A stretch of DNA of 64,000 nt from Myxococcota bacterium (GCA_030748735.1 JASMLK010000157.1:9278-73277); one strand, 5' to 3'. Shown: positions 6,858 through 57,684, counted from the stretch's first letter. Notes: generated by a model not told the origin, from the letters alone. Translations and numbers: made by a program.

Positions 6858-6897
6858 CTTCTGACGGCCTCGCAAGCCTCGCGACGGAGCTGGCTGG

Positions 6898-8349: not shown

Positions 8350-8355
8350 GGTTCT

Positions 8356-9495: not shown

Positions 9496-9572
9496 CGATC
9501 CTCCTTCGAACGAATTGCGTCGGCACGCCGTGGTATGTTTCTGCGCTTCGGGTGCGAGAGGGGTGCCTGTGA

Positions 9573-11762
<2,190 letters not shown>

Positions 11763-18132: not shown

Positions 18133-18579
18133 TCAGAACTGTCGGAAGTAGTGCTCGTTCGGGCGGGGCGCTCGACTGTCGAGCCAATAGGTTTCAGCCT
18201 CGGGGTCGAACTTGCGGCTTAGAGGATCGTGCCCCAGCAGCCGCATCACCAGCCCTGTCGGCGTGATGATCAGGAAGTAGAGGGTCCCCAGGATGAGGTA
18301 CGACAGCACGAAACCGATCGGGTACGAAAGGATCGCGAGCCCGACATAGACGGGCTGATTCGCCTTGGGGTAGACGAGCCCGCAGATCCCCGAGTACGCC
18401 GCGAGGCCGATGAAGACGTTCACCACGATCGGTTTGGCGGCCCCCAGGCCCATCGCGAAGATCAACCACTCGAAGTGGGCGATCGTCGCCACGAAACCGA
18501 AGCCGAATACGGCGATCAAGCCGAAGTTGCGAAGGGTCTTCGCATCCGGCTTCCAGTTCATTTCGATCATTTGCGCCAT
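18133..18579 (-). CDS. SxtJ-family membrane protein
   Basis: 148 aa with about 4 TM segments, ending in EHYFRQF. It sits between a carbamoyltransferase and a DUF5989 gene, the conserved SxtI/J/K-type arrangement. Confidence 0.7.
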   Translation of the reverse strand: MAQMIEMNWKPDAKTLRNFGLIAVFGFGFVATIAHFEWLIFAMGLGAAKPIVVNVFIGLAAYSGICGLVYPKANQPVYVGLAILSYPIGFVLSYLILGTLYFLIITPTGLVMRLLGHDPLSRKFDPEAETYWLDSRAPRPNEHYFRQF

Positions 18580-18627
18580 CAGGGGCCTCTTTCAGACGCT
18601 CGCTAGAGCGACGGACGGGGTCGTGAA

Positions 18628-20457: not shown

Positions 20458-20704
20458 CTGGTTCTCCGTTCCCGTGTCGCCTGGCTTGCTGCTTCTACCA
20501 ATGGGCAATAGGCGCCGGCTCGATTCGATCCAGCGACCGCGGCCGACGCATCGCCTGATTCGCGCCGGGTGAGTGACCCACGACACCCAGATGGGGTCGC
20601 GGATTGTGAGCGAGCGGCAACCCGATCACAATAGCCACATCGGTACAACGCCTCTCCAGTAAAGAGAAAAGCAGCGCAACCGGCAGAACCTGTTCACGGC
20701 GTTT

Positions 20705-20730
20705 CACTTGCGCGCAACTTGGCGCAAGTG
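20705..20730. other. Perfect 9-bp-stem hairpin (CACTTGCGC-N8-GCGCAAGTG) downstream of the heparinase-like gene; possible terminator or operator
   Basis: The inverted repeat was read directly. No U tract follows on either strand. Confidence 0.3.
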
Positions 20731-20785
20731 CACTGCGGCGCGATCCAACGGGGCGGCACCGAGTCTCCCCCTGGCCTTCGCCGGT

Positions 20786-34076: not shown

Positions 34077-35297
34077 TCATTCCACCGCTTCGATGCCAGC
34101 CCCCGCCGCGGCCTTCACGCCGAACACCTCGGTGTCCTTCCCGAACCGATCGCGGTAGCGCGCGCCCAACACATCACACACGGCGTCCACCGCTTCGGGC
34201 TTCACCAGGTGGAGCGCGCAACCGCCGAACCCCGCCCCCAGCAACCGCGATCCGTAGACGCCGTCCTGTGCGTCAGCAATTTCGCAGAGCATGTCGAGCT
34301 GGGGAATCGACACTTCGTAGTCATCGCGCAGACTCGCATGCGATGCCCTGATCTCCGCGCCGACTGCGGCCAGACCGATCGGGGGCTCCGCTTCGAGCAG
34401 TCGACAGACCCGGTCGACCCGCGCGTTCTCGCCGACCACGTGACGCACGCGGCGAAAGTCGACTTCGTCGAGTTGCCCGGCGAAACGAACCAACCCATCG
34501 GGCGACAGCGCGCGCAATGAACGTGGCGCAGCGTCAGGCTCCGATGCGACGATCCCTTCGAGCCCGCGAGCGCACTGCGCAACGCGGTCGCGATAGCCCT
34601 GCCCCGCGGCCGGCCCCGCCAACTCGCGCGAGACACCGGAATGCGAGATCACGAAGGACAGCTCCGCCACCGGCAGCGGAACGGATCGCGTGCTCTCGTC
34701 TTCGCAGTCGATGCGAAGCGCATGGCCCGCTCCGCACAAGGCGATCGCGAACGGATCCAGGATCCCGCAGCCCGTCCCGACGAAGTGGCTTTCGGCGCGA
34801 TGCGCTCGGCGCGCACAGCGCAGGGCGGAGAAGTCTGCCCCGAGCAGACGATCGATCGCGATGGCGACCGCAACACACAGGGCCGCCGAACTCGAAAGGC
34901 CCGATCCAACCGGGATGTCACTCGCGATCACGAGGTCCATCCCGCCCGGGTGTTCGCCCTGCTCGAGGCTCGCCGCGATGGCGCCAGAGAGGTAGGCCCC
35001 GAACCCGGTCGTTGCCGCGTCGCCCACCGCGAACTCCACCTCTTCGCCTTCGGCAGCGAGATCGCAGGCAAAGGCGTACACGCGATCGTCGCCGCGCGGA
35101 GCGACGGCCAGATGCAGCGCGCGGTCGATCGCAAACGGGAGAACCAGACCGCCCGTGTAGTCGGTGTGCTCGCCGATCAGGTTCACGCGTCCCGGCGCAC
35201 GCACGACGAATTCGGGTTCGCGAACAAAGCGGGTGCGAAACGCGTCCAATACGAGCGCGTGCGTGTCGCGGGTCGGCGGGAATTCGGGGCGGGCCAT
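34077..35297 (-). CDS. galK: Galactokinase
   Basis: GRVNLIGEHTDYTGGLVLPFAID signature and GHMP motif PVGSGLSSSAAL. Confidence 0.9.
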   Translation of the reverse strand: MARPEFPPTRDTHALVLDAFRTRFVREPEFVVRAPGRVNLIGEHTDYTGGLVLPFAIDRALHLAVAPRGDDRVYAFACDLAAEGEEVEFAVGDAATTGFGAYLSGAIAASLEQGEHPGGMDLVIASDIPVGSGLSSSAALCVAVAIAIDRLLGADFSALRCARRAHRAESHFVGTGCGILDPFAIALCGAGHALRIDCEDESTRSVPLPVAELSFVISHSGVSRELAGPAAGQGYRDRVAQCARGLEGIVASEPDAAPRSLRALSPDGLVRFAGQLDEVDFRRVRHVVGENARVDRVCRLLEAEPPIGLAAVGAEIRASHASLRDDYEVSIPQLDMLCEIADAQDGVYGSRLLGAGFGGCALHLVKPEAVDAVCDVLGARYRDRFGKDTEVFGVKAAAGAGIEAVE

Positions 35298-35382
35298 CGG
35301 GGGCGAACGCTACCGTGGGCGCGCGCGTTCGCGATCCACGATCCCCACGGCGGCAGGCGCATTCCAGGCGAAAGGCCACACC

Positions 35383-36852
35383 ATGCAGTCGAGGCGGTAC
35401 GAGAAGCGGCGCGGTTTGCGGGCGAGAACGGCGTGGCGGGCGCGGCGCGGCGCGCGGGCCGCAGCCGTTGGGATCGGGCTCGCCGTCGCTGGCGTTTTCG
35501 CCTTCTCGCCCCCGCAACCTGCCCGGGCCGCCGACCCCTTCCTGCGACGAACTGCAGCCGTCGAGGTCGTCGAACGCGTCGGCCCCGCAGTCGTGAACAT
35601 CACGACGGTCGTCGAAGACCGTTCTTTTCCCGAACGTCGCACGGGGCGCGACCCATTCTTTCGCGACTTCGAACACCCGCGACGTTCGGGGCGAGACGTC
35701 CAGATGCTCGGGTCGGGGGTGATCATCGACGAAGAGCGTCACGTACTCACCAACGCCCACGTGATCGCCGATTCGGCGCGCATCTTCGTGAGCCTCGCCG
35801 ACGGGAAGGAATACCCGGCACTTCTGGTCGGGGCCGCGCCCAACAACGACCTCGCCGTCCTCCAGATCGAAACCGACGCCCCCCTGCCCTGGGTGGCGCC
35901 GGGACGCTCCGACGACCTGATGGTCGGCGAGCCCGTGATCGCGATCGGCAACCCCTTTGGCCTGTTCTCCAACACGGTGACCACCGGCGTGCTTTCGGCG
36001 ATCGACCGGTCGCTGAGCGTCGAGGGCGACTACTACTACGGCTTCCTGCAGACCGACGCTTCGATCAACCCCGGCAACTCGGGTGGACCGCTGCTCAACG
36101 CCGAAGGCAGCTTGATCGGGATCAACACTGCGATCTATCGCGGTGGGCAGGGCATCGGACTCGCGATTCCGATCGACACCGCAAAGCGGGTCGTCGCCGA
36201 ACTGCTCGAGCACGGCGAGATCCCACCGCCCTGGATCGGCGTCGAATTCAAGAACCTCGACCCCGAGCTGCGCGACGTGATGCGACTACCCGACCGCGTG
36301 TCGGGCGCATTGGTCACACACGTCGAACCGGATAGCCCCGCCGAGCGCGGCGGCCTGAAACGCGGCGACCTGGTGATCGCGGTCGACGGACATCGCGTAG
36401 AACGCGACCGCTCCTTCTTCGAAGCACTCAAGACCACCCTCGTGGGCCAGGCGATCGAACTCGAGATCTGGCGGAACGGCGACACGCAGAAGCTGCGCGT
36501 GGTCGGGATCGACCTGCCCGATCACATCGTCCGAGACCTCGCGGCGCAGTTCCTCGGCATGAAGCTCCAGCGCGCGACCGGCCCCGGCTACGGGATCCGC
36601 GAACTCCGCGACGACTATCCCGCGCACGAGTTCGGCATCGCCGCCGGAGACACGATCCTCGCGATCAACGGTCGCGTCCTCCGCAACAAGGACGACCTGC
36701 GCCGCGCCATGGTCGACCTGCGTCGCGACTACGCCGCCACCCAGGCCCGCAACCGCGTGCTGCTCGACGTGCGCCGCGGCAACGCGCGCCGGCATTTTTC
36801 GTTGCCGAGCTACGAGGCCTACACCGCATTGCGCCGACTGCGACCGCGATAG
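35383..36852 (+). CDS. HtrA/DegP-family periplasmic serine protease with two PDZ domains
   Basis: His (LTNAHVI), Asp (NDLAVLQ), Ser (GNSGGPLL), and PDZ segments (GGLKRGDLVIAVDG; GIAAGDTILAING). The start was trimmed to ATG 35383. Confidence 0.9.
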   Translation: MQSRRYEKRRGLRARTAWRARRGARAAAVGIGLAVAGVFAFSPPQPARAADPFLRRTAAVEVVERVGPAVVNITTVVEDRSFPERRTGRDPFFRDFEHPRRSGRDVQMLGSGVIIDEERHVLTNAHVIADSARIFVSLADGKEYPALLVGAAPNNDLAVLQIETDAPLPWVAPGRSDDLMVGEPVIAIGNPFGLFSNTVTTGVLSAIDRSLSVEGDYYYGFLQTDASINPGNSGGPLLNAEGSLIGINTAIYRGGQGIGLAIPIDTAKRVVAELLEHGEIPPPWIGVEFKNLDPELRDVMRLPDRVSGALVTHVEPDSPAERGGLKRGDLVIAVDGHRVERDRSFFEALKTTLVGQAIELEIWRNGDTQKLRVVGIDLPDHIVRDLAAQFLGMKLQRATGPGYGIRELRDDYPAHEFGIAAGDTILAINGRVLRNKDDLRRAMVDLRRDYAATQARNRVLLDVRRGNARRHFSLPSYEAYTALRRLRPR

Positions 36853-36854
36853 CC

Positions 36855-36873
36855 GCCGGTTCGAAAGACCGGC
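36855..36873 (+). terminator. Short hairpin right after the HtrA stop (GCCGGT-N7-ACCGGC)
   Basis: Read directly; there is no U tract, so this is weak. Confidence 0.25.
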
Positions 36874-36917
36874 AGGGACGAGGGCTGCGAGATCTCGTAC
36901 CACCGGATCCAGCGGGA

Positions 36918-36936
36918 CCTTGCACGGTCCTTGCAC
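36918..36936 (+). promoter_or_regulatory. Tandem direct repeat CCTTGCAC-N3-CCTTGCAC (11-bp phase) 43 bp upstream of the exosortase gene
   Basis: Perfect 8-mers at 36918-36925 and 36929-36936. The geometry matches OmpR/PhoB-type tandem half-sites. The same bases also read TTGCAC-N5-TTGCA, one G short of a sigma54 -24/-12 element. Confidence 0.4.
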
Positions 36937-36978
36937 AGTTCCGTCACGGGTCCGCCCCGGCTGGTTCATTCGCAGCGC

Positions 36979-38511
36979 ATGTCTCCAACCGAATGTGGGG
37001 GCATGTCGTGCACAGGCCCGGCCCTCCGCTTCGATCGAGCCCTCATCCCCGTCGCCCTGGCCCTGCCGGGGCTCGTCGCATTGGCCTGGGATCCCGCGGT
37101 CTGGCTCTTCGGCACGTGGCGCGCTCCGGCCTACGAGAGCAACGGAGCGGTGGTCGCGCTCACCGTGGTCGCGCTGCTCGCGCTGTCCCTTGCGAGTGGG
37201 CGTGCGCATCGCGATGCGCGGTCTGCGCGCCTTGCGTTTGGGCTGCTCGGCCTGGCCGCGGCGATTCGGCTCGCGGGTCGGGTACTGGCTGTGAATACGA
37301 TCGGAGCGTTCGCGCTGGTGGTCGATGTCGCGGCGGTCGCATCGCTATTGCGCGTGTCGGCGAGGCCCTTCGCTCTTCACCCCGGGCTCGTTGCGGCTTT
37401 GTTCGCGATGGCCTTGCCGATCGAGCACTACGCCCAGCGCTTGCTCGGCCATCCACTGCAGCTCGCAGCCGCAACGACCTCCCACGCACTGCTTGCTCCC
37501 TTCTCTGCGGGGCTCGAGCGCGAGGGGGTTCTGCTGCTTCATCCCGATGTCGTCCTCGCGATCGATCTGCCCTGTAGCGGCGCGCGTGGACTTTCCCTCT
37601 ACACGTGCGTCGCCCTGGCCCTGTGGACCTGCCACCAGCTGAAAGTGGCGCAGGTCGCCAGGCTCGTGGCGGCGATCGCAGGCGGCGCGCTCTTCGCCAA
37701 CACGGCCCGCATCGTCGCACTCTTCGTCGGCGCCGCGAACGGCATTCCCGTCGCCGCCGAGCCTTGGCACAGCACGCTTGGTGTCTTCGCGCTCGGCGCC
37801 GGCGCCCTGCCGATCCTGAGTGTGTTTCGAAACGCGAAGCGACGGACGCCAGCCATCCGATGGTCTTTCGCCAGGCCCCCATCGTCATCGCCGCTCTTGC
37901 GATGGCCGGTCGCCGTCGGCACGAGTGCCATCGGGTTGGCGATCGCGATGGCGCCCCAGCATCCGGTGGATGTGGCACCCATCGAACGCGACGCGCGGCT
38001 GCCCGCGACCCTCGGTCCCTTCAGCGGCGTCGACGTTCCACTCGCCCCGAACGAACGCGCCTTCTTCGAACAATGGGGGGGTGGTGCGGACAAGCGGCGC
38101 TACCGCGCTGGGGATGGCACGGAGCACACGGCGCTGCTTGTCCGCACCCGTTCACCCCTCCGCCACCTGCACGGGCCCGATCAGTGTTTGATCGGTTCGG
38201 GGCACCGCGTGACCCGCATCGGCGTGGTGCCAGGCGCCGTCCCCACGGTCGTCTACAAGAGCATCGCACCCGATGGCCGTGCGTGGCGGGTGCAGGCCTC
38301 GTTCGCGAGCGACCTGGGTGAGCCGGCGAGCAGCGTGTCTGAAGTCGTCTGGCGATGGCTCGCCGAGCCCGAGGTCCCCTGGAACCTGATCGAACGCATC
38401 ACACCGTGGGATGCGTGCGCGGACGCATCGGGGGCTTGCCGGCGATTCGACCGCGCCCTGTTCACCAGCCTCGACCTTCCCGTCGAGCCGCATGAAAGGA
38501 GTTCGTCATGA
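36979..38511 (+). CDS. Exosortase-family transpeptidase fused to a C-terminal EpsI-like domain
   Basis: Polytopic N-terminal half with the exosortase Cys/Arg/His motifs (AIDLPCSGARGLSL; LFANTARIVALF; EPWHSTLGVFALG). The C-terminal ~220 aa carries an EpsI-like HGPDQCLIGSGH motif. The start is ATG 36979 or 37003. Confidence 0.8.
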   Translation: MSPTECGGMSCTGPALRFDRALIPVALALPGLVALAWDPAVWLFGTWRAPAYESNGAVVALTVVALLALSLASGRAHRDARSARLAFGLLGLAAAIRLAGRVLAVNTIGAFALVVDVAAVASLLRVSARPFALHPGLVAALFAMALPIEHYAQRLLGHPLQLAAATTSHALLAPFSAGLEREGVLLLHPDVVLAIDLPCSGARGLSLYTCVALALWTCHQLKVAQVARLVAAIAGGALFANTARIVALFVGAANGIPVAAEPWHSTLGVFALGAGALPILSVFRNAKRRTPAIRWSFARPPSSSPLLRWPVAVGTSAIGLAIAMAPQHPVDVAPIERDARLPATLGPFSGVDVPLAPNERAFFEQWGGGADKRRYRAGDGTEHTALLVRTRSPLRHLHGPDQCLIGSGHRVTRIGVVPGAVPTVVYKSIAPDGRAWRVQASFASDLGEPASSVSEVVWRWLAEPEVPWNLIERITPWDACADASGACRRFDRALFTSLDLPVEPHERSSS

Positions 38512-40661
38512 AACGTCACTTCGAGGAGCCACGTCGCGCGATCGCCTACGTGGTTTCGTCCGTCCTTCTGTTCGCATTCGTGGTCACCACTGCGCGTGCC
38601 GACGAAACCGTCATGCCAGAGCTCGTGGCGACGATCGACGGTCGCGAAGTTCCGCTCCCGAGCCTGAAGAGCGACTTCGACGCGAACCTCCAGGGCGATC
38701 TCGCAACCGTGCGTGTCACCCAGACCTTCGAGAACCCCTACGACGCCCCCCTGCACGCGAGATACATCTTCCCGCTGCCGACCGACGCAGCCGTGTTCGC
38801 GATGCGGATGTCGAGCGGCGACCAGATGATCGAGGCGGAGATCCACGAGAAGAAACAAGCGCGCGCCGTCTTCGAAAACGCGAAGGAGCGCGGCAACCAG
38901 GCGGCGCTCCTCGACCAGCATCGTCCCAATGTCTTCACCCAGGAAGTCGCGAACCTGATGCCGGGGCTTCCGATCCGGGTGGAACTCGAATACGCCCACG
39001 TGGTCGAGAAGCAGGACGGCGCCTATCGCTTCCACATCCCCACGGTGGTGGGCCCGCGCTTCGTGCCGCGCGAGCTGGACGCGTCCCAGCCGGGTGCGCC
39101 CACCCTGCGCGAAGGAGAACCCGCGCCCCTCGTGATCGGCGCGTGGAATCTGCCGGCGAGTCCTCCCGTGGCCGCGCCCGACGAAGTGGACCGGGAACGC
39201 GTATCGATTCGCGTGGCACTCGCGGCGGGGATGCCGATCCAGTGGATCCAGAGTCCGACCCATCGCGTGCAGGTCGACCGACTGGGAGAGGCGAAGCGAA
39301 AGATCGAACTCGCTGCCGGTCGCACCGTCGACAACAAGGACTTCGAACTCCACTACCAACTGGCGGGTCATGAAGTCGCGGCGGGGCTCACGACCTTCGT
39401 CGATGGAATGGACGGCTTCCTGTCGCTCCTCATCGAACCGCCAGCCAGCGCACGCGATGCCGAGATCACGGCCCGTGAGATGGTCTTCGTGCTCGATTGT
39501 TCGGGAAGCATGGCGGGCATTCCGATGGCGGCGTCGAAGCGCTTCATGACCCGCACCCTGCAGAACATGCGCCCGAGCGATTCGTTTCGAATCATCCGCT
39601 TCTCGGATGCCGCGACCGAGTGGAGCGAGCGCCCGCTGAGAGCGACCCCCGCGAACATTCGCGCGGGCCTGCGTTACGTCCACGGCCTGAGTGGGATGGG
39701 GGGCACCCATATGGCAAGTGGCATTCGGGCAGCGCTTTCGCCTCGCGTCGAGCCGGGCGCGTTGCGCATCGTGGTCTTCCTGACCGACGGCTACATCGGG
39801 AACGACGTCGAGATCGTGCGCCTGCTCGACACGAAGCGCGGCGAGGCGCGGCTATTTTCCTTTGGCGTCGGAAACAGTGTCAATCGCTACCTGATCGAAG
39901 AGATGGCGAGGGTCGGCCGCGGCGCAGCGCGCATCGTTCGGCCGACTGAGGATGCCGAGGTGGCGGCCGACGAACTCGTCGAACGGCTCGCGGCCCCGGT
40001 GTTGACCGACATCGAAATCGATTGGAACGATGCCGCGGTGGCAGACGTCTATCCCCAGGAGATCCCGGATCTCTTTCTGGGGCAGACGGTGCGCGTGCTC
40101 GGACGCTTCGAGGGGAGTGGTCGCTATCGCGTCACCGTGCGCGGCAGGATCGCTGGCGATCCCGTGACGATGCCCCTCGATGTCGAGCTTCCGGGTCGTG
40201 GTGTTCGAGGCGAAGGCCCGGATGCACGAGCACTCCCCATCATCTGGGCGCGCAGCCAGATCGAAGACCGCATGATCGAGTACATCAAACCGAGCCTGCC
40301 TTCCCACGAGCGCGATGCGGTCCAGTCGGAAGTCACCGACCTGGGCCTCGCCCACCGACTGATGACGCAGTGGACGTCCTTCGTCGCGGTCGCGAAGCCG
40401 GTGGTGAACCCCGGTGGAGAGGGCCGGCATGCCGACGTCGCGGTCGCCCAGGTCGAGGGCGTTCCCGACACGGCGTATCCCCAGAGTGCGTTGCGCCACG
40501 GCGGCAACGGATTGATGCCGCCCGGCCAGAGCCCCCAGCTCCTGGTCAAGGCGGGCGGCTTCAACGGCCACGCGGCGCCGGAGCCTTCGACGTGGATCGC
40601 GCTGCTCGTCGTCACAGCCCTTGCGGGCATCTCGTTACGCCGCCCCCCAACGGCGCGCTAG
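38508..40661 (+). CDS. VIT + von Willebrand A domain protein with a PEP-CTERM sorting signal (candidate dedicated exosortase substrate)
   Basis: Signal/TM AYVVSSVLLFAFVVTTARA. VIT region (VRVTQTFENPYDAPLHARYIFPLPTDAAVFAMRM...). vWA MIDAS (VFVLDCSGSM). C-terminus AAPEPSTWIALLVVTALAGISLRRPPTAR. ATGA overlap with the exosortase gene. Confidence 0.85.
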   Translation: MKRHFEEPRRAIAYVVSSVLLFAFVVTTARADETVMPELVATIDGREVPLPSLKSDFDANLQGDLATVRVTQTFENPYDAPLHARYIFPLPTDAAVFAMRMSSGDQMIEAEIHEKKQARAVFENAKERGNQAALLDQHRPNVFTQEVANLMPGLPIRVELEYAHVVEKQDGAYRFHIPTVVGPRFVPRELDASQPGAPTLREGEPAPLVIGAWNLPASPPVAAPDEVDRERVSIRVALAAGMPIQWIQSPTHRVQVDRLGEAKRKIELAAGRTVDNKDFELHYQLAGHEVAAGLTTFVDGMDGFLSLLIEPPASARDAEITAREMVFVLDCSGSMAGIPMAASKRFMTRTLQNMRPSDSFRIIRFSDAATEWSERPLRATPANIRAGLRYVHGLSGMGGTHMASGIRAALSPRVEPGALRIVVFLTDGYIGNDVEIVRLLDTKRGEARLFSFGVGNSVNRYLIEEMARVGRGAARIVRPTEDAEVAADELVERLAAPVLTDIEIDWNDAAVADVYPQEIPDLFLGQTVRVLGRFEGSGRYRVTVRGRIAGDPVTMPLDVELPGRGVRGEGPDARALPIIWARSQIEDRMIEYIKPSLPSHERDAVQSEVTDLGLAHRLMTQWTSFVAVAKPVVNPGGEGRHADVAVAQVEGVPDTAYPQSALRHGGNGLMPPGQSPQLLVKAGGFNGHAAPEPSTWIALLVVTALAGISLRRPPTAR

Positions 40662-40677
40662 ACGACAGGAGGAACAC

Positions 40678-41385
40678 GTGGCCAGGATCCTGGTGGTCGA
40701 CGACGACGCACACATTCGCGATGTCGTGCGCTTCGCCCTCGAAAAGGCCGGGCACGCCATCAGCGAAGCCGCGGATGGCCGTGCCGCGCTCGATCAATGG
40801 GCGGCTTCGGGTACGGACCTGATCGTGCTCGACATCTTGATGCCCGAAACCGACGGCCTCGACGTGTGCCGGCAGGTTCGCCAACGCGATGACGTCCCGA
40901 TCCTGTTTCTTTCGAGTCGTGACGAAGAACTGGATCGCGTCCTCGGATTGGAACTGGGTGCCGATGACTACCTCACCAAGCCCTTCAGCCCGCGCGAGCT
41001 GGTCGCGCGGGTGAAGGGGATCTTGCGCCGCACCCGGGCGCCCGAGCGCGAGTGCTACGCGCGTCAGGCCATCGACCGGGGCGCCTTGCGGGTCGATGTC
41101 GATCGGCACACGTGCACCTGGCTTGGTGAACCGGTCGTGCTCACGGTGACGGAATTCGATCTGCTTCACGCCATGCTCGGCATGGCGGGCAAGGTGTACA
41201 CGCGAAGTGAGATCGTCGAGCGCGCGTATGGGCAGGGCCACCACATCACCGATCGCACCGTCGACAGTCACATCCGACGCATTCGCAAGAAGTTCAAGGC
41301 GCATGGCCCCGACCCGATCGAGACGGTCTACGGGTTGGGATACCGCCTGATCGTCGACCCGGCAGCAGGAGAGTCGTGCGCGTGA
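40678..41385 (+). CDS. OmpR/PhoB-family response regulator
   Basis: ILVVDDDAHIRD...LDILMPETDGL REC domain plus a winged-helix output domain (TVTEFDLLHAML...YGLGYRL). The GTG start is 6 nt after GGAGGA. Confidence 0.9.
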   Translation: MARILVVDDDAHIRDVVRFALEKAGHAISEAADGRAALDQWAASGTDLIVLDILMPETDGLDVCRQVRQRDDVPILFLSSRDEELDRVLGLELGADDYLTKPFSPRELVARVKGILRRTRAPERECYARQAIDRGALRVDVDRHTCTWLGEPVVLTVTEFDLLHAMLGMAGKVYTRSEIVERAYGQGHHITDRTVDSHIRRIRKKFKAHGPDPIETVYGLGYRLIVDPAAGESCA

Positions 41386-42962
41386 CGGCGGCCCCCGGGC
41401 TGGCATCGCGATCGTGGCCGCGCGTAGGTATCCGGGGGGTCGTACTGACGATCAGCGCGTTCGCGCTCGTCGTGCCGCTGGCGTCGATCGTGTTGCTGCG
41501 CATCTTCGACGACCAACTCATCCAGCGAACCGAAGCGCAGCTGATCGGGCAGGCCGTGTTGATCGCAGAAGCCTGGCGCGAGGCGTGGCGCGTCGAAACC
41601 GCGAGCGACATCGGAGCGGATCGCGAATGGGTTCCGCCACAGCGCCAGGGCGACCTCTACTTTCCGATCGAACCGATGCTGCAACTCGGCCAGGGCGTGC
41701 TTCCTCCAACCGACGAGCCCGAACGCTTCGCCCTGGTTCGCGAAGGACCCGCGTGGCGCGCGGGGCGCGCTGTCGAACCGATCTTGAGGCGGGCCGTACG
41801 CATGAATCTCTCGAGCGTGCGGGTGCTCGACACCAACGGTTGTGTGGTGGCATCGAGTGCAGGGCAGCACGGCGCGTGCATCGACGATCTCGCCGAAGTC
41901 GGACGTGCCCTTCGCGGTGACTACGCGGCCGTATTGCGTCACCGGGTCGCGGGAGGGCAGACGCCTCGGTACGACAGCATCAGCCGGCGCGGACGGGTCC
42001 GGGCGTACATCGCCCTGCCCGTCTTCAGCGGCGGGGAGGTGATCGGGGTCGTTCGTCTGGTGCGGACCGTCATCGACCCCGGCAAGGCTCTCTGGTTCGA
42101 TCGCTTTCGTCTGCTCAGCGTACTGCTGGGCTGCGCACTCTTGACCGCGGCGCTCTCACTCTTCCTTTCGCGCACGCTCACGCAGCCATTGCGCGACATC
42201 ACGCGCCGCGCGCTCGGCATTGCGCGCGGAGAAGGACGCCGACCGATGACCCTTTCGGGGCTCGCGCCGAAGGAGTTCGACGACATGAGCCGTGCCCTCG
42301 ATCAGATGATCGGCCAACTCTCCGATCGGGCCGAGTACATCTCCGAGTTCGCGGCGAACCTGAGCCACGAACTCAAGACCCCGATCACGGGGATACGCGG
42401 TGCAAGCGAACTCCTCTCTCAGCAGTGGGAATCGATGACGGATGAGGAACGGGGGCGCTTCCTCGTGAACATCGAAGCCGGTGCGGCCAGGATGGAGCGC
42501 CTGGTCAATCGCCTACTCGAACTCGCTCGCATTCAAAGCGCGCCAGAAACCGCTGAAGACGTCGACCTCGCCTCGTTCCTCGAGTCGCTCGTACGCGGCT
42601 ACGGCGCGCGGCTCGTTCTCGAAATCGAGGATTCGCCTTCGAGCATCCGCATCAACCCCGATCACCTCGAATCCGCACTGCGCAACCTGATCGAAAATGC
42701 CCTGCGCCACGGCGCCGGCCAACCAGTCGACCTCGACGTCGAGACGCGCGGCGAGCGGGTGGTCTTCCGTGTCCGGGATCGCGGTCCGGGCATCAGCAAC
42801 GGAAACCGCGACCGCATCTTCCAGCGCTTCTTCACCACCGAACGAGATGCCGGGGGAACCGGGCTCGGGCTCGCGATCGCGAGAGCCGTGGCCGAAACAC
42901 GCGGCGGTCGGCTCGACTTCACGAGCGACACCGGCGGAACCTGCTTCGAACTCGTGCTCTAG
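41376..42962 (+). CDS. Membrane sensor histidine kinase (2 TM, ~200-aa periplasmic domain, HAMP, HisKA, HATPase)
   Basis: TM1 GVVLTISAFALVVPLASIVLL, TM2 LLSVLLGCALLTAALSLFL, H-box SHELKTPITGIRG, NLIENALRHG, DRGPGI, GTGLGLAI. It overlaps the regulator gene by 10 nt. Confidence 0.9.
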   Translation: MRVTAAPGLASRSWPRVGIRGVVLTISAFALVVPLASIVLLRIFDDQLIQRTEAQLIGQAVLIAEAWREAWRVETASDIGADREWVPPQRQGDLYFPIEPMLQLGQGVLPPTDEPERFALVREGPAWRAGRAVEPILRRAVRMNLSSVRVLDTNGCVVASSAGQHGACIDDLAEVGRALRGDYAAVLRHRVAGGQTPRYDSISRRGRVRAYIALPVFSGGEVIGVVRLVRTVIDPGKALWFDRFRLLSVLLGCALLTAALSLFLSRTLTQPLRDITRRALGIARGEGRRPMTLSGLAPKEFDDMSRALDQMIGQLSDRAEYISEFAANLSHELKTPITGIRGASELLSQQWESMTDEERGRFLVNIEAGAARMERLVNRLLELARIQSAPETAEDVDLASFLESLVRGYGARLVLEIEDSPSSIRINPDHLESALRNLIENALRHGAGQPVDLDVETRGERVVFRVRDRGPGISNGNRDRIFQRFFTTERDAGGTGLGLAIARAVAETRGGRLDFTSDTGGTCFELVL

Positions 42963-43002
42963 CTTCTGGTCATGCGCAATTGCATTCAGGACAATCTCGT
43001 CG

Positions 43003-44343
43003 ATGGGTGACCAGGGCCCGACTTCATCACCACTGCGGCGCTTCATCAAACTCGGCAGTCTCGCGAGTCGGGTAGGAACGTCCGTGGCCGCTTCACGGGC
43101 ACTGGACTTCGTGCGGTCCGATCCCGCGGACCAGATTCGCAGCACGGAAAACCTCGTCAAGAACGCCATGCGCATCGTCGAGACCCTGGGTGAGTTGAAG
43201 GGGGCCGCGATGAAGGTGGGGCAGATGCTGAGCCTTCACGAAGGCATGCTGCCCGCCGAAGTGGCCAGCGTCCTGCGCGAACTGCAGCGCGAAGCGCCGC
43301 GGGTACCCGCCGAGGTCATGCGCTTCGAAGTCGAGGGCTCGTTGGGGGCCAAGATCGACGATCTCTTCCCGAGCTTCGACGAAGAGGCTTTCGCGGCGGC
43401 GTCGATCGGACAGGTCCACCTGGCGCGACTCGAAGACGGACGCCGCGTCGCGGTGAAGGTCCAGTACCCCGCCATCGACCAGATCATCAAGGCCGATCTC
43501 GGCAATCTGCGCAGATTGTTTCGCGCGATCTTCAGCATGATCACCGAGCTGGACTTCGAACCGATCTGGTTGGAGCTACACGACCGACTGCTGGAAGAAC
43601 TCGACTACCGCAACGAAGCCGACAACATGCGCCGCATGGCGGAGCTGCACCGGGACGTTCCCGAAGTCGTCATACCGGGCGTCATCGACGAACTCAGCAG
43701 TGATCGGGTGCTCACCATGGAGTACCAGGAGGGCATCAGCCCCGACGAGGCCTGCTCGAAACACTACGCACAGGAACAGAAAGACCTCTGGGGGGTAAGG
43801 CTCTTCGAATTCGAAATGCGCGGCTTCTTCGAGCACCGTTTCCTCCATGCCGACCCGAACATGGCGAACTTCGCGTTCCTCGAAGACGGCCGCGTCGTCG
43901 TCTACGACTTCGGCTGCATGAAGTCCGTCCCAGACACCCTCGTCGAAGGACTCGCAACACTCTTCCTCGCGGTGCACGAGGGCCGACAGCGGGAGGTCCC
44001 CCAGGTATTGCTCGAAATGGGCGTGTACAAGGAAGGCGAAGTGCGAACGCCCCTCCCGCTCGACTTGACCACGCCCTACGTCGAGATCTTCGGAGAGATC
44101 TTTCGCGACCGGCCGACCTATCGCTTCGGCGAAGACGCGGAGTTCTACGACAGACTCGTCGCCCTCGGGATGGCGAACTGGCAGAAAGCCACCGACATCT
44201 CGTTCCCCCAGGACATCATCTTCGTCAACCGGTCGCTCGGCGGACACTTCGGAAACCTGGCGCGATTGCATGCTGCGGGACCCTGGGGAGAGATCGTCGA
44301 GCGCTACGCGAACGAAGTGCTCGATCGCCAACCGGCGACGTAG
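43003..44343 (+). CDS. ABC1/UbiB (AarF) atypical kinase family protein
   Basis: KGAAMKVGQMLS, AAASIGQVHLARLEDGRRVAVKVQYPAI, HADPNMANF. The start was trimmed to ATG 43003. Confidence 0.85.
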   Translation: MGDQGPTSSPLRRFIKLGSLASRVGTSVAASRALDFVRSDPADQIRSTENLVKNAMRIVETLGELKGAAMKVGQMLSLHEGMLPAEVASVLRELQREAPRVPAEVMRFEVEGSLGAKIDDLFPSFDEEAFAAASIGQVHLARLEDGRRVAVKVQYPAIDQIIKADLGNLRRLFRAIFSMITELDFEPIWLELHDRLLEELDYRNEADNMRRMAELHRDVPEVVIPGVIDELSSDRVLTMEYQEGISPDEACSKHYAQEQKDLWGVRLFEFEMRGFFEHRFLHADPNMANFAFLEDGRVVVYDFGCMKSVPDTLVEGLATLFLAVHEGRQREVPQVLLEMGVYKEGEVRTPLPLDLTTPYVEIFGEIFRDRPTYRFGEDAEFYDRLVALGMANWQKATDISFPQDIIFVNRSLGGHFGNLARLHAAGPWGEIVERYANEVLDRQPAT

Positions 44344-52872: not shown

Positions 52873-53535
52873 TCAAGCCTCCAGTTCGACTGCGAGGAAA
52901 GCGCCCGAGATCGCTTTCTGACCCGCGCGCTCGGCGTTGCTTCCCTCCCAGATCGCGAAGGCAATCCGGGCGAGTCCGCCCGGTGCAAAGCGAGCGAATT
53001 CGCCGCCTTCGAGCTCGAGTGGGCGCTGGAATACGACGTGCCACTGCCCGTCGCGGTGGAGCGCGTTCGACGCGAGCTGACTGGAACTGGCTGGCCGCCG
53101 CTGGCTGGTCGCATAGCCCCTGGCGATCACGTCGAAGGGCTCTTCCCGGTCCGCCTTCCAGAGCCACGCGTTCACCGGCTTGCGCTCGTCACCCATGGTG
53201 AGCGGGTTTGCGTCGTCGAGAAGCGGGAACATCACGGCCGCGCCATCGGCGAACCGGTCGAGGTCAGCGATCTGGTCGTCCTTGTCCGAGTCGCGCCACG
53301 AAAGCCGCACGCTGAGGGTTTCTCCGTTGTGAGCCAACCTCGCCTCCGCACGGCGCACCTTGCCATGGTTCTGACTGAGTGCCATCTGGCCCGACACGTT
53401 CGCTGCCATGGTTACGGGGGCCGGAACGAGGTCGATCCCGATCGCGCTCGAACCGGACCAGGCCGCTCCATCGACTTCGAGCAGTTTCTCGTTGCTCGCC
53501 GCGACGCGCTTCGCCTTTGCCTGCGCCTTCGCCAT
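52873..53535 (-). CDS. EB_dh-type (ethylbenzene-dehydrogenase-gamma-like) haem b subunit of a type II DMSO-reductase-family enzyme
   Basis: 220 aa. The pattern RLSWRDSDKDD...DGAAVMFP...NAWLWKAD...IAFAIWEGSNAERAGQKAIS is typical of DMSOR type II gamma subunits. No N-terminal hydrophobic signal is visible. Confidence 0.7.
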   Translation of the reverse strand: MAKAQAKAKRVAASNEKLLEVDGAAWSGSSAIGIDLVPAPVTMAANVSGQMALSQNHGKVRRAEARLAHNGETLSVRLSWRDSDKDDQIADLDRFADGAAVMFPLLDDANPLTMGDERKPVNAWLWKADREEPFDVIARGYATSQRRPASSSQLASNALHRDGQWHVVFQRPLELEGGEFARFAPGGLARIAFAIWEGSNAERAGQKAISGAFLAVELEA

Positions 53536-53565
53536 TTCGTTCTCCCTGTCCCCGCCCGAACGCGG

Positions 53566-54606
53566 TCAAATCGGTTCGGCGGTGAACTCCGCAAAGCGAT
53601 CGAGCCAGCGGCGGCTGATCAGCAGATCCATCAATTCCGAAGGCTCGCCGCGCTTGCGGCGGTTGCGCTCTGCGATGATGGTGTCGAGCGCGCCGCGTAC
53701 CGCCGGACCGAAGTAGCCCTCGAGCACTTCGATCGGAAGACGCCCGGCCCCGGTCAGCCTGCCCTCTGTGTCATAGGCCAGCGGTGACATCGGAGGCACG
53801 TAGTAGACGTTGGGTTCAGTGCCGAATTCCGGATGCAGCGGCAACGCGACCTTCCACTGCTTCACCAGTTTGTGCACCTGGCTCTCCGGGTCGTCGAGGT
53901 AGCCGTACGCCCGCGTCCGGCCCACACACTGGCGGTTGCACGCCGGCGCAACCCCCTTTTCAACGCGAGGAAAACAGTCGATGCACTTCTCGCTCTTCTG
54001 GCTTTTCGGGTTGAAGTAGATCATCGAGTAGGGGCATGCCTCGACGCAGTGGCGATGCCCCTCGCAACGATCCTGCTCGATCACGACGATTCCGTCATCG
54101 CGCTTCACGATCGCGTTGCGCGAGCAGGCGTCGATGCAGGGGGCGTTGCTGCAGTGGTTGCACTTGCGAGGCATGTAGAAGAAGTACGGGTTGGGCCAAT
54201 CACCCTTGCCCTGATCTTCGTCCCAGTTGTAACCCCAGGTCGGGACCTCACCTCTGGCTGAGCGCGGTTCGAGCTTCTTGCCCTGCGCGTTGCCAGCCCC
54301 GAGCACCTCGCCGTGGTTGAACTGGAAGTTGTCGCCGCAGTCGACCAGGTTGGTGAGCCGGCCAGGCTGTGGCCGACCTTCCCCGTCGAAGCCCCCACCC
54401 TTCTGCTCCCAATCCTTCGGGTAGCCCTTGCCCGGGCAAGTCGACACGTTGGCCCAGCGCATGTGTTCCGTGCCTTCGCGTTGGGTCCACAGGTTCTTGC
54501 ACGCCACGGTGCAGGTCTGGCAGCCCATGCACTTGCTGAGATCGATCACGGTCGCCAGTTGCCGTTTCGAACTCTTGAGTTCCTGCTTGCTCGGGACGGC
54601 GCTCAT
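53566..54606 (-). CDS. Fe-S (NarH-like) beta subunit of a type II DMSO-reductase-family enzyme
   Basis: Four ferredoxin-type clusters (CMGCQTCTVAC; CNHCSNAPCIDAC; CEGHRHCVEAC; CIDC...ACNRQC). The start was trimmed to ATG 54606, which overlaps the alpha stop (ATGA). Confidence 0.9.
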   Translation of the reverse strand: MSAVPSKQELKSSKRQLATVIDLSKCMGCQTCTVACKNLWTQREGTEHMRWANVSTCPGKGYPKDWEQKGGGFDGEGRPQPGRLTNLVDCGDNFQFNHGEVLGAGNAQGKKLEPRSARGEVPTWGYNWDEDQGKGDWPNPYFFYMPRKCNHCSNAPCIDACSRNAIVKRDDGIVVIEQDRCEGHRHCVEACPYSMIYFNPKSQKSEKCIDCFPRVEKGVAPACNRQCVGRTRAYGYLDDPESQVHKLVKQWKVALPLHPEFGTEPNVYYVPPMSPLAYDTEGRLTGAGRLPIEVLEGYFGPAVRGALDTIIAERNRRKRGEPSELMDLLISRRWLDRFAEFTAEPI

Positions 54607-57566
54607 ACGGGCCTCCGGTCCTGCGCCGCATGCTGTCCTGCCGCAGTCCCACCGACTTTCGCGATGTCCACCCGCAGCCCTCGATCCGTCGAAGGCGAAG
54701 GACCGCCCGAGGTCATCTGGTAATCGAGCTGACCGTAGTTGCCGGCCAGTTGGATCGCCTTCGGCAACCCCACCAGCAGGGCGTCGTGGGACTTCCAGTT
54801 CTTGTACTGATAGGGCTCCCACATGTAGATCACGACCTGGTCGTGCCCCACCGCGGCCGATGTCGACACCATCATCTCCGCCTCGTCGAGGTCGTTGAAC
54901 ATGCGAACCATGTCGCCGTCCTCGATGCCCCGCTCGGCGGCCACGCGATCGTTTACGAAGAGCACGGGTTGGCCGCGATGCAGACGCAAAAAGTGGGGGT
55001 TGGAGGCCTGCAGGCAGTGAATGCTCGCGCGAATGTGTCCGCTGATCAGTCGGAAGGGATGAATGCCACCGATCGGTGGGGTCTCCTTGTGGGTCGGAAG
55101 CGCCTCTCCAGCCTCCATGAACCACTCGTGATCGATGTAGAACTGCGCCCGACGCGCGTAGGTGGGATAAATGAGCTTGTCGTCTACATGCCAGCGCAAC
55201 GAATAGAAGGGAGCGTTGGGATCCACCTCGTTGGCCGCCGCGTGCCCCGCGTAGCCCGGCCCGATCGAGGCTACGCGCACCTGCCCCTCCTGCTTCAGTC
55301 GCTCGTAGTCGAAGCCCTTCGGGAAGACGCCCGTGTGCTCGGCCACCGCCGCAAATTCGCGCACCACGTCTTCGTGGTTGCTCAAGTGGCCGTTCATGGT
55401 GAAGCGTTCGTGGAGATCGGCGTACTGCTGGCGATCACCCGCGTTGTCCTCGAAGGACTTCATCCCCCGGGCACCTGCTCGCTCTTCGATCTTCTTGAGC
55501 AATGCCGCAAAGATCTCCCATTCCGGCGTGGCCTCTCCCTGCGGCTCCACCGCCTGTTCGATCAGGCAGGTGTAGGGGTTCATGCCGAAGGTCAACGTCA
55601 TGTCGGTCTTCTCGTAGTACCAGGCCGCGGGCAGCACGATGTCGCAGTACATGGCGGAAGAGGAGAGCCGGGGATCGATGGCGACGAGCATCTTCAGCTT
55701 TGGGAAGAGCTTCTCGACGTAGGTCTGGTGAGCGCTTCGCTCACGTCGCAGCGGGTTGTGCGCCATCAACATCAGCACCTGGGGTGGCTCGTCCGGCCCC
55801 GGCCCGGTGAGCGCTTCGTCCCAGTAGCCCCGCTCGACGGAGTCCTTCAGGTACTGGCCGAAGCTGCGATCGAGGGACGGGTCCTGCCACTCGCTGCGGT
55901 CCCACAGCTCGTCATAGCCCGCATGGTTGTACATGTAGAAGGCGGGGAAGACCGATCCCATTTCCCGGGTGGCCTTCTGCTGGAAGGCGATACTCACCAT
56001 CTCGTCGCTGAGCGACGGATCCTTCATCTTCATCCACAGTGACTTCGCCATCACCGGCGCGATCAGTCCCCACAGCCCCCAGCGCTCGAGCGGTGAATTC
56101 ATGGCGCTCACCGCCTGAAAACCGGTCTCGGGAATCAGGAAGCAATTGAAGCCCGTGCCGGGCTTGCCCCAGTTCCCCGTTAGCCCCATGGCGAGCAACA
56201 AGCTTCGCTCCATCAGGTCGCCGTGGTACTGCTTGGCTGAAGTGAAGCCGATGAAGCTGCAAGTGCGTTTCGTCGCCACCTTGCGGGCGAAGTCGCGAAT
56301 CACGTCCGGATGGATGCCGCAGACTTCGCTCGCCTGCTCGGGACGATGCTCGCGGTCGAGCTTGCTGCGAAGCAGCTCGAAGCCGGGCGTGACCTCGACC
56401 TCGCTGCCGTCGGCGAGTTCGACGACGTGGCTTCCGGCGAGCGCCTGCACGCCGTCGAATTCGAGTGTGCCGCGCGGAGCTTCTACGACGCGATCAGAGC
56501 CTTCGTCGAAGAAGTAGAGCTGGTCTTCCCGGCCGCGCCCGAGGTCCGGCGCGCGCAGATAGCGCCCGGTGTCCTTGCGCACCAGGATCGCGAGGTCGGT
56601 CTGTTCCCGCACGAAGTCTGGCTGGTGGAGCCCTTCCTCGACGATCACCTGACAAACGGACAACCAGAAGGCGGCATCGGTCCCCGTGCGCAGGGGAAGA
56701 TGGAAGTCGGCCGCCAGGGCGGTGGGGTTGTAGTCAGGCGCCAGAAGCGCGATCTCGCTGCCGTTGTAGCGAGCCTCGGTGATGAAGTGATAGATCGCCG
56801 GCCACGTATAGGAGGGGTTGGCATTGGTGAGGATGACGAGTTCTGCGTCGAAGAAGTTGTCGGCCGTGTAGCCCATGTGCATCTTGCCGAAGGTCTGACG
56901 CAGGCCCTTCATGTCGTCGCCGATCGCGACGTTCATGTCCGGCATGATCGCGCCCAGAAGACGCGTCACCCGCATGGCACCGTCGAGTGCGACGGTGCCG
57001 GCGTGGATGTGCGGTGCGTCGAAGACGAAGCTCTTGGGCCCCTGACTCTCGTGGGCATCGAGGATGGCATCGGCCACATCACCGAGTGCCTCGTCCCAAC
57101 TGACGCGCTTCCACTTCCCTCCGCCTCGCTCACCGACCCGTTTCAGCGGGAAGCGCACGCGCTCGGGACTGGCCAACACCTGGTGGAAGCCGCAGCCCTT
57201 CTGGCAACCCTGAGGATTGAAGTCTGGATAGGCCGGGTTCGATGCTGCGGATCGTGCGGCCTGCTCTTCGCGCCACACCATCCCGTCACGTGAGTAGACG
57301 CGAAAGGAACAACCGCCGGGTGCGCACTGATTCGTGTGGGAACCCCAATGCACGGCGTCCCACTTCCACTCGTCGCGATAGATGTCTTCCCATGCGCCGT
57401 AGCTCACGGCTGCATCGGTCGAACCGGGCTGCGCGAGCCCCGGCTTCGGCACCAGAGCCCTCAGCTGCAACAAGCCGAGCGAGAGGCCGAGTGCGCCGCT
57501 CGCCTTCAGGAAGTCGCGTCGACCAAGGGTCGCGCGTGGCGCGCACGTACGATCAGACGTCGTCAC
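54603..57566 (-). CDS. Molybdopterin catalytic alpha subunit, type II DMSO-reductase family (NarG/EbdA/SerA-like), Tat-exported
   Basis: Twin-arginine signal TLGRRDFLKASGALGLSLG, FS0 motif HTNQCAPGGCSF...x34...C, and a ~980-aa MopB + dimethyl sulfoxide reductase-type C-terminal barrel. The start was set to GTG 57566, 6 nt after GGGAGGA. Confidence 0.9.
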   Translation of the reverse strand: MTTSDRTCAPRATLGRRDFLKASGALGLSLGLLQLRALVPKPGLAQPGSTDAAVSYGAWEDIYRDEWKWDAVHWGSHTNQCAPGGCSFRVYSRDGMVWREEQAARSAASNPAYPDFNPQGCQKGCGFHQVLASPERVRFPLKRVGERGGGKWKRVSWDEALGDVADAILDAHESQGPKSFVFDAPHIHAGTVALDGAMRVTRLLGAIMPDMNVAIGDDMKGLRQTFGKMHMGYTADNFFDAELVILTNANPSYTWPAIYHFITEARYNGSEIALLAPDYNPTALAADFHLPLRTGTDAAFWLSVCQVIVEEGLHQPDFVREQTDLAILVRKDTGRYLRAPDLGRGREDQLYFFDEGSDRVVEAPRGTLEFDGVQALAGSHVVELADGSEVEVTPGFELLRSKLDREHRPEQASEVCGIHPDVIRDFARKVATKRTCSFIGFTSAKQYHGDLMERSLLLAMGLTGNWGKPGTGFNCFLIPETGFQAVSAMNSPLERWGLWGLIAPVMAKSLWMKMKDPSLSDEMVSIAFQQKATREMGSVFPAFYMYNHAGYDELWDRSEWQDPSLDRSFGQYLKDSVERGYWDEALTGPGPDEPPQVLMLMAHNPLRRERSAHQTYVEKLFPKLKMLVAIDPRLSSSAMYCDIVLPAAWYYEKTDMTLTFGMNPYTCLIEQAVEPQGEATPEWEIFAALLKKIEERAGARGMKSFEDNAGDRQQYADLHERFTMNGHLSNHEDVVREFAAVAEHTGVFPKGFDYERLKQEGQVRVASIGPGYAGHAAANEVDPNAPFYSLRWHVDDKLIYPTYARRAQFYIDHEWFMEAGEALPTHKETPPIGGIHPFRLISGHIRASIHCLQASNPHFLRLHRGQPVLFVNDRVAAERGIEDGDMVRMFNDLDEAEMMVSTSAAVGHDQVVIYMWEPYQYKNWKSHDALLVGLPKAIQLAGNYGQLDYQMTSGGPSPSTDRGLRVDIAKVGGTAAGQHAAQDRRPV

Positions 57567-57684
57567 CGCGTTCCTCCCACTTCGAGGCCACAGCCGCGGA
57601 GCACGCGCCAAGTGGACAGTGACTACATTGTTTATCATGCTATGTAGATAGCGTCAACACTGCGGGTCCTTTCAGGAGATCCAC

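Follow-up and report, generated by a model that had tools for sequence, protein, structure and literature searches.

An exosortase T cassette with a single predicted VIT-vWA substrate in a Myxococcota bacterium

What does an exosortase attach its substrate to? The question has stood since 2006 and, according to the available text of a 2025 paper (PMC12188702), was still open in that year, as an earlier note on the DNA studied here had also stated. A stretch of 64,000 nucleotides from a Myxococcota bacterium (GCA_030748735.1, JASMLK010000157.1:9278-73277; hereafter the window) bears on this question, as it encodes at positions 38508-40661 a protein with a VIT domain, a vWA domain and a C-terminal sorting signal, next to an exosortase gene. 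The earlier note had proposed that this exosortase joins the protein to exopolysaccharide (EPS), by analogy with the inter-alpha-trypsin-inhibitor heavy chains (ITIH) of eukaryotes. The analysis described here showed that the exosortase gene xrtT, the VIT-vWA target gene and the genes of a CreB-like regulator and a CreC-like kinase form a four-gene cassette, and that this cassette is a dedicated one-enzyme, one-target system.

The cassette genes and the target protein

The genes of the cassette and the elements of the target protein are as follows:

36931..38511, plus strand, exosortase T (XrtT); NF033770, 416.5 bits against a cut-off of 250
38508..40661, plus strand, VIT-vWA protein with a PEP-CTERM tail, predicted single XrtT substrate; 717 residues in one open frame
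38508..38600, plus strand, N-terminal export signal of the target, residues 1-31; helix 8-27 in the model, likely cut after A-R-A31
38673..38993, plus strand, VIT domain, residues 56-162; PF08487, E 1.9e-30, 105.7 bits
39477..39932, plus strand, vWA domain, residues 324-475; PF13768 (VWA_3), E 3.8e-14, and PF00092, E 8.5e-12
40572..40643, plus strand, PEP-CTERM sorting signal, residues 689-712; Pfam, NCBIfam and genome scan
40678..41385, plus strand, OmpR-family response regulator, CreB-like; CreB NF008296, Response_reg and Trans_reg_C
41376..42962, plus strand, sensor histidine kinase, CreC-like; CreC NF008312, HAMP, HisKA and HATPase_c

The neighbouring exosortase of the earlier note is encoded directly upstream of the target and, judged by its family match, is a member of the catalogued subtype exosortase T. 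The alignment to NF033770 extends over essentially the full model (XrtT residues 47-516 on positions 7-472 of 472), and the Pfam family Exosortase_EpsH scores 71.6 bits. The longest open reading frame (ORF) starts with TTG at 36931, and the ATG codons at 36979 or 37003 are likelier starts. XrtT consists of a polytopic membrane domain and a C-terminal alpha/beta domain of about 170 residues; in the structural model (pLDDT 83.0) the polytopic domain is helical and the alpha/beta domain occupies about residues 348-497. The Cys, Arg and His of the exosortase/archaeosortase centre have a catalytic role, and D212-L-P-C215-S-G, N257, R260 and H280 (ORF numbering) are invariant in all 18 aligned XrtT sequences. 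A fold search with the whole model returned no PDB match at E up to 0.001, while the C-terminal domain gave weak PsbP-, MTC28- and Apa-like rows (E 0.25-0.43) and had no Pfam match at E up to 10. The motif R-H-L-H-x-P-x-x-C-x-x-G-x-G, likewise invariant in 18/18 sequences, is presumably reminiscent of EpsI proteins; an EpsI likeness of the C-terminal domain was considered and rejected, since Pfam and NCBIfam searches give it no support.

The stop codon of xrtT overlaps the start codon of the target gene (ATGA, 38508-38511), which couples the translation of the two, and the target ATG is preceded at 7 nt by a ribosome-binding site of the GGAG type. The G+C content at third codon positions of the target gene (0.81) is typical for genes of the window, which has 65% G+C. 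The cleavage site of the export signal was predicted by applying the -3/-1 rule to the sequence by eye. The succession of a VIT and a vWA domain with the string DCSGS of a metal-ion-dependent adhesion site (MIDAS), described in the earlier note, was recovered in the Pfam scans, in the translation (D330-C-S332-G-S334) and in an alignment of 60 homologs, all of which retain the MIDAS residues D330, S332, S334, T400 and D427. Residues 476-717 match no Pfam family besides PEP-CTERM at E up to 10.

The C-terminal sorting signal, which the same note had called cleavable, proved to be a PEP-CTERM tail. TIGR02595 passes its cut-off (18.0 bits vs 16), and PF07589 scores 18.7 bits on the whole protein, under its cut-off of 20.7, and 23 bits, over the cut-off, on the tail in a whole-genome scan. 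All three parts of such a tail are found at the extreme C-terminus, namely P691-E-P693, a hydrophobic helix at 693-710 in the model and R711-R712, and exosortases are encoded in the same genome. The P-E-P triplet (P691-E692-P693) is invariant in 60/60 homologs, and the family shares the signature F685-x-G687-x-x-x-P-E-P-x-x-W696, helix, R-R, in which F is present in 53/60, G in 57/60 and W in 39/60 sequences. The best NCBIfam match of the protein as a whole is TIGR03788 ("marine proteobacterial sortase target"; 467.5 bits, residues 53-648); this score is below the cut-off of 551.65, there is neither an LPXTG-type signal nor an adjacent class GN sortase, and the protein does not belong to that family. 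NCBIfam contains no dedicated model for the XrtT target, which reaches only TIGR03788, below cut-off, and the generic PEP-CTERM domain.

An AlphaFold2 model built on the 60-sequence alignment (mean pLDDT 84.7, pTM 0.81) presents the target as a plain exported protein with one C-terminal helix: the signal helix (8-27) is followed by a folded body at about 46-645, a low-confidence linker (666-690) and the terminal helix (693-710). The top PDB match of this model in Foldseek was human ITIH1 (6fpy, E 3.2e-41), and VIA-align superposed model residues 47-629 on ITIH1 residues 45-613 with a Z-score of 26.2 and a root-mean-square deviation of 5.8 Å over 511 residues. Other top structural rows covered the vWA domain only, or the C-terminal half of the body (4fx5, 8s05, 5a8j; archaeal and actinobacterial vWA proteins; 312-331 residues). 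Sequence searches found PARP4 (E 3.2e-31), ITIH4 (1.2e-25) and ITIH1 (4.8e-16) as relatives. The ITIH architecture claimed for this protein was thus borne out by structural comparison, and more strongly than had been stated, as the model points to homology with ITIH over the whole folded body and not merely to a common order of domains. This likeness also connects, in evolution, a family of bacterial envelope proteins with a family of animal matrix proteins.

The likely start of the regulator gene is GTG 40678, located 17 nt after the target stop codon and preceded by AGGAGG at 40667-40672, while the longest ORF begins at 40621; the kinase gene overlaps the regulator gene by 10 nt. We describe the pair as CreBC-like, not as CreBC, because CreB and CreC are the best matches and both remain below their equivalog cut-offs: the regulator scores 220 bits against 273 for CreB NF008296 and 183 against 335.7 for TIGR03787 (PdsR), and the kinase 194.1 bits against 356 for CreC NF008312 (residues 28-524 on positions 10-468 of 477) and 99.9 against 612.2 for TIGR03785 (PdsS). 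A scan of 34900-43600 found one promoter-like and three terminator-like sites (shuffle means of 0.6 and 4.9, respectively); these are not above the shuffled sequences, and none lies at a boundary of the cassette genes. The four DNA data sets listed as containing the stretch are seawater metagenomes, two of them perhaps the origin of this very DNA, and no RNA data set was listed for it.

Recurrence of the cassette and pairing of enzyme with target

In a scan that covered one genome per species, VIT-vWA relatives were encoded at 60 loci. Their C-termini, classed by pattern, fell into P-E-P tails (24), OmpA-type ends (20), other ends (15) and one end cut by the contig. The pattern missed four tails with P-E-P followed by an extension (P0123, P0143, P0146 and L022), which were found by eye, and wrongly marked P0018 as LPXTG-like. 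XrtT is encoded directly upstream in every P-E-P locus with at least 1400 nt of upstream DNA (16/16, out of the 24), and in one of the 35 loci without a recognised PEP tail; the latter is L022, one of the four with an extension. The regulator and kinase genes were present in 15 of the 21 P-E-P loci having at least 2500 nt of downstream DNA. All-against-all clustering of ORFs from 25 related loci left the four cassette genes, along with shadow frames, as the only conserved ones, and no EPS or outer-membrane export gene was conserved at the cassette in these loci. A fifth conserved gene, either a PdsO-like OmpA gene or an outer-membrane exporter, was rejected on the basis of this clustering.

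Record titles place the cassette in Myxococcota, Hyphomicrobiaceae and other Alphaproteobacteria, Alcanivorax, Bradymonadales and a metagenome-assembled genome (MAG) of Pseudobdellovibrionaceae, and its distribution is patchy. Of 301 genomes sampled from the phylum to which the window belongs, 14 have XrtT above its cut-off; within the family it was detected in 1/18 genomes, and the only other genome of the genus gave no match. Among 301 sampled Gammaproteobacteria, three carry XrtT, each with an adjacent TIGR03788-like gene scoring below cut-off, and 36 carry a true sortase target (TIGR03788). Sub-cut-off TIGR03788 matches occur in four genomes of this sample, at 447-516 bits, i.e., 36-104 bits below 551.65, and the XrtT genomes are exactly three of these four. 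Two Bradymonadales loci (L048:3547-9228 and L054:183-4476) contain two VIT-vWA genes in tandem; the pair in L048 follows XrtT, which may serve two near-identical targets there.

Besides eight exosortase-family genes, the genome from which the window derives (5.08 Mb, 94.84% complete) has 17 PEP-CTERM matches over cut-off and only one VIT domain. XrtT is the sole exosortase encoded on the contig of the window. The target tail contains A-A-P-E-P-S-T-W, whereas the other tails of the genome follow the pattern V/I-P-E-P-x-T-A-L-L-x-G-x-G-L. In four of five other cassette genomes checked, XrtT is the sole exosortase-family gene; in two of these four the target is the only PEP-CTERM match, and in the other two there is none at threshold. 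The pairing of enzyme and target is based on synteny (16/16), the ATGA overlap and the co-occurrence in Gammaproteobacteria. A 320-residue protein with an FGE-sulfatase domain, encoded at 12349-13311 on the minus strand, also has a canonical PEP-CTERM tail (25.6 bits) and is probably a substrate of another exosortase of the genome.

To place the target among its relatives, phylogenetic trees of the shared core (target residues 46-645) were constructed, leaving out proteins shorter than 600 residues and loci cut by contig ends. In a FastTree phylogeny of 215 rows, the 25 sortase-linked proteins formed one clade (support 100), and a second clade of 56 rows (support 99) comprised 47 proteins with a pattern-recognised P-E-P tail, four with P-E-P and an extension, and five with TonB_C-like ends. 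An IQ-TREE phylogeny of 73 rows, hand-picked to represent each clade, gave SH-aLRT values of 100 for both the sortase-linked and the P-E-P clades, and the TonB_C-like forms were nested among the P-E-P forms in both trees. Pfam scans of 14 chosen relatives detected OmpA (84.8 bits), SLH (48.4), MotA/ExbB (100.4, as a fusion) and TonB_C (17.9-26) ends; relatives carrying one of these in place of the tail are 37-45% identical to the target over the core. The OmpA, SLH, TonB_C and ExbB anchors face the periplasm, peptidoglycan or inner membrane, and this is the chief argument from comparison, an inference, for a VIT-vWA body that works at the envelope.

Individual relatives illustrate these ends. 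In P0214 the VIT-vWA body is fused to a MotA/TolQ/ExbB channel domain, in P0147 to an SLH domain, and in P0261 it is followed by TonB_C and then by a Cys-containing C-terminal signal which, read by eye, resembles MYXO-CTERM. The 20 of 60 loci ending by pattern in an OmpA-type peptidoglycan-binding motif (within L034-L060) come from Thiotrichaceae, Beggiatoa-like and Thiomargarita MAGs; they have no XrtT, a regulator pair is nearby only at L035, and an OmpA domain was confirmed by Pfam only on another relative, P0266. These OmpA-ended proteins look like a fusion of two partners of the sortase system, the target and PdsO, since PdsO is a separate gene in that system.

Fate of the mature protein and the genomic neighbourhood

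The following course of events could be proposed for the cassette. The target would be exported by means of its N-terminal signal, and its C-terminal helix would then keep it in the inner membrane, the R-R cluster facing the cytoplasm. By analogy with the exosortase family, XrtT would cut at or near P-E-P through its Cys-Arg-His centre (C215, R260 and H280) and pass the new C-terminus to an acceptor. The mature protein would be tethered to lipid or peptidoglycan, in the periplasm or at the cell wall. The conserved linkage suggests that the adjacent two-component system switches the cassette on. The metal-dependent MIDAS could hold a ligand and help the envelope to withstand stress, as proposed by comparison with SO2195 of Shewanella. 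As to the acceptor, archaeosortase A and rhombosortase produce lipid-type C-terminal modifications, and for this reason a lipid appears at least as plausible an acceptor for XrtT as peptidoglycan or a glycan.

We estimate a probability of about 0.5 that the mature target stays bound to the cell envelope and serves its stability under stress, as SO2195 does. This reading draws on the best match to TIGR03788, the role of SO2195, the envelope anchors of relatives, the nesting of TonB_C forms among P-E-P forms, and the link of CreBC and BlrAB systems to beta-lactam resistance and responses, the last of these as given in published titles and abstracts. According to the available text of the published work on Shewanella oneidensis (PMC13712847; bioRxiv 10.1101/2023.05.05.539549), the products of the operon pdsO-SO2195-SO2196 are an OmpA-like protein, the TIGR03788 target and a sortase; the neighbouring two-component system, PghKR, induces this operon and responds to peptidoglycan-targeting drugs and to the loss of PBP1a; and SO2195 is required for tolerance of beta-lactams and D-cycloserine and prevents the lysis of spheroplasts. 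In Shewanella algae, a kinase mutation was reported to raise the expression of the sortase 126-fold, of the target 388-fold and of pdsO 799-fold (PMC11580497, available portions).

Several observations weigh against an envelope role. Of the 21 P-E-P loci whose downstream DNA is long enough, 6 have no regulator pair, and no PdsO-like OmpA gene lies beside the cassette in the 25 clustered loci. Regulator and kinase are below the CreB and CreC cut-offs and far below those of PdsR and PdsS, and a Pfam scan of the kinase showed nothing that resembles the CBM9 sensor domain of PghK (393 residues), so that the signal sensed may differ from that of PghK. The TonB_C matches are weak (17.9-26 bits vs 24.6), and just one of the five nested rows (P0238, 26.0 bits) is above the threshold, while anchor swaps among relatives speak for evolutionary interchangeability and not for the localisation of the target itself. 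PEP-CTERM proteins have elsewhere been linked to the cell surface and EPS, as cited in the available text of the 2025 paper (PMC12188702). Finally, a literature search with limited coverage of subscription journals found no published work treating XrtT, and no experiment on it is known to us.

The polysaccharide genes named in the earlier note (EPS export, manA, galK, a heparinase II/III-like gene and a carbamoyltransferase) are all present in the window:

164-9777, minus strand, apparent edge of an XrtA-type EPS locus; all family matches below cut-offs
3135-3755, minus strand, polysaccharide export gene
5658-6875, minus strand, manA
18628-20586, minus strand, carbamoyltransferase (NodU/CmcH-type)
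20786-22432, minus strand, heparinase II/III-like gene
34077-35297, minus strand, galK; opposite strand to the cassette, beyond the HtrA gene

The EPS genes seem to be the margin of a locus of the XrtA type, with a TIGR03007-like chain-length determinant (205.6 bits), a TIGR03016-like outer-membrane protein, a TIGR03027-like export protein (146.8 bits), two sigma-54 response regulators for which TIGR02915 (PEP-CTERM-box regulator) ranks third after AtoC and NtrC, a histidine kinase and manA. Apart from galK, the named genes are 16-35 kb from the target gene, and rplS, trmD, purD, alr, thiG and thiE lie between them and the cassette. Their co-location with the cassette looks like chance, because no EPS gene is conserved at the cassette and XrtT stands alone in other genomes.

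Attachment of the target to EPS by the exosortase, as the earlier note had it, found no support in these comparisons. Such a transfer, whether by an ITIH-like ester bond or by an amide bond to an amino sugar, would make the protein a cross-linker of the matrix, and could be argued for from the whole-body likeness to ITIH1, the position of the expected cut just after the folded body as in ITIH, and the XrtA-like EPS locus on the same contig. In the available text of a study of CrtB from Nostoc, an exosortase substrate is considered "possibly" linked to polysaccharide "or some other molecule" (PMC12188702), and the type IX system may offer a bacterial precedent for the attachment of cargo to a glycan through its C-terminus (PMC7468200, in the portions available). 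However, the 25 loci share no EPS or outer-membrane export gene, the cassette is the sole exosortase system in four of five other genomes, a distance of at least 16 kb, with housekeeping genes in it, separates the cassette from the EPS genes of the window, the ITIH propeptide (ITI_HC_C) and the DPHF cleavage motif are absent, and the anchors of relatives are directed to peptidoglycan or membrane; we therefore regard EPS transfer as highly improbable. A broader proposal, in which the acyl-enzyme of XrtT would be resolved by a glycan-bearing polymer of the envelope (peptidoglycan or polysaccharide), giving the target and ITIH a common working mode, seems quite doubtful, though a little less so. 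If it were true, bacterial VIT-vWA proteins and ITIH would resemble each other in more than their fold: both would be cut behind the body and joined covalently to a sugar polymer through the C-terminus thus created, and the inducible XrtT cassette would be the first exosortase system with a defined acceptor.

The main rival to an envelope role is that XrtT merely releases the target, leaving a MIDAS adhesin at the surface or secreted, with the two-component system timing adhesion instead of responding to envelope damage. The structural matches include MIDAS-bearing vWA domains from adhesins and pilus tips (SpaC, PitA and the vWA domain of LapA), the linker ahead of P-E-P, about 45 residues long, would fit a stalk, and PEP-CTERM proteins aid floc formation and adhesion elsewhere, as cited in the available text of PMC12188702; but the clustered loci offer no outer-membrane route, the OmpA, TonB_C and ExbB anchors of relatives face the periplasm, and the only tested relative, SO2195, acts on envelope integrity (PMC13712847, available text), so that we consider release as an adhesin unlikely. 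Least probable of all is a function outside both envelope and matrix, such as the handling of metals or other ions or an aerotolerance role of the BatA/BatB type, with the tail serving as a trimmed membrane anchor. BatB and Bacteroides aerotolerance-related vWA proteins do appear among the vWA matches, but these span only the vWA domain (about 170-200 residues, against 511 for ITIH1), and no Bat-type partner genes are conserved beside the cassette; likewise, many homologs are labelled "Ca-activated chloride channel family protein" at JGI, but this name is an automatic label.

Several elements of this picture were known before: the XrtT enzyme family is catalogued, and the exchange of tails on VIT/vWA proteins, which carry LPXTG, PEP-CTERM or GlyGly-CTERM signals depending on the lineage, has been in print since 2011 (PMC3237569, available text). 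The search with limited subscription-journal coverage found no mention in print of the conserved CreBC-like pair, of the separate clade formed by XrtT targets, of the variety of envelope anchors in close relatives or of the whole-body match to ITIH1, nor did any paper among the matches listed join inter-alpha-trypsin inhibitor with sortases or exosortases. Most exosortases have dozens of unrelated substrates. That XrtT has just one, which is well folded and open to modelling, that it comes with its own switch and that it is the only exosortase of some hosts together make the acceptor question experimentally approachable. Given the part of SO2195 in antibiotic survival (PMC13712847, available text), the XrtT version may be a parallel envelope-stress device of marine and soil bacteria.

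Other genes of the window are noted here for completeness. Genes for DegP/HtrA-type periplasmic proteases are located at 35164-36852 and 58491-59981, both on the plus strand. The former adjoins xrtT upstream and is not conserved there in relatives; it was rejected as a member of the cassette, as none of the 60 loci yielded an HtrA homolog. An SxtJ-like small protein, the carbamoyltransferase and the heparinase II/III-like protein are encoded in a row at 18133-22432 on the minus strand, which may be a polysaccharide-modifying set. At 52873-57638 (minus strand) a type II DMSO-reductase-family enzyme resembling ethylbenzene dehydrogenase is encoded, whose alpha subunit has a Tat signal and scores 1223 bits against 2000 with the EbdA model and 947 against 985 with TIGR03479; TIGR03477 identifies the gamma subunit as a haem b subunit (171.4 bits vs 169.85).

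Comparison with known systems

The closest characterised relative of the target is found in the proteobacterial dedicated sortase (Pds) system, which consists of a sortase, the TIGR03788 target (SO2195 in Shewanella), PdsO and the two-component system PdsR/PdsS (PghR/PghK). This system resembles the cassette in the homologous VIT-vWA body of the target, in the one-to-one relation of enzyme and target, in a cleavable tail whose motif is followed by a helix and basic residues, and in an adjacent two-component system of the OmpR type. However, the sorting enzyme of the Pds system is a class GN sortase, while that of the cassette is an unrelated exosortase, and no match to the Sortase family (PF04203) was found in the genome of the window at its 94.84% completeness. 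The targets differ in their tails as well, those of the Pds system ending in LPxTA/LPQGA-type motifs (LPRTAT, LPQTAS, LPQGAT) and that of XrtT in P-E-P. The Pds system includes a pdsO gene, which the cassette does not, and the cassette regulators are CreBC-like and below the Pds cut-offs. Consistent with these differences, sortase targets and XrtT targets form separate clades with support of 99-100 each.

With the heavy chains ITIH1-4 the target shares sequence homology, the whole-chain fold and an intact MIDAS, and the processing predicted for it falls, like that of ITIH, immediately behind the folded body; the vault protein PARP4 is a further VIT-vWA relative. ITIH heavy chains are cleaved at a DPHFII motif and ester-linked to chondroitin sulfate or hyaluronan. 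The C-terminal propeptide domain and a DPHF-type motif are both absent from the target: Pfam scans reported no ITI_HC_C domain, the DPHF string occurs in 0/60 homologs, and the last 80 residues contain no D-P. Unlike in ITIH, cleavage of the target is assigned to a separate membrane enzyme.

Among the other exosortases, XrtO is the second-best model for the enzyme (69.2 bits) and, in NCBIfam, the only match of its C-terminal domain (20 bits) other than XrtT itself. The upstream gene matches the full XrtT model, and both the gene order and the one-to-one pairing with the VIT-vWA target are those seen in relatives from several phyla.

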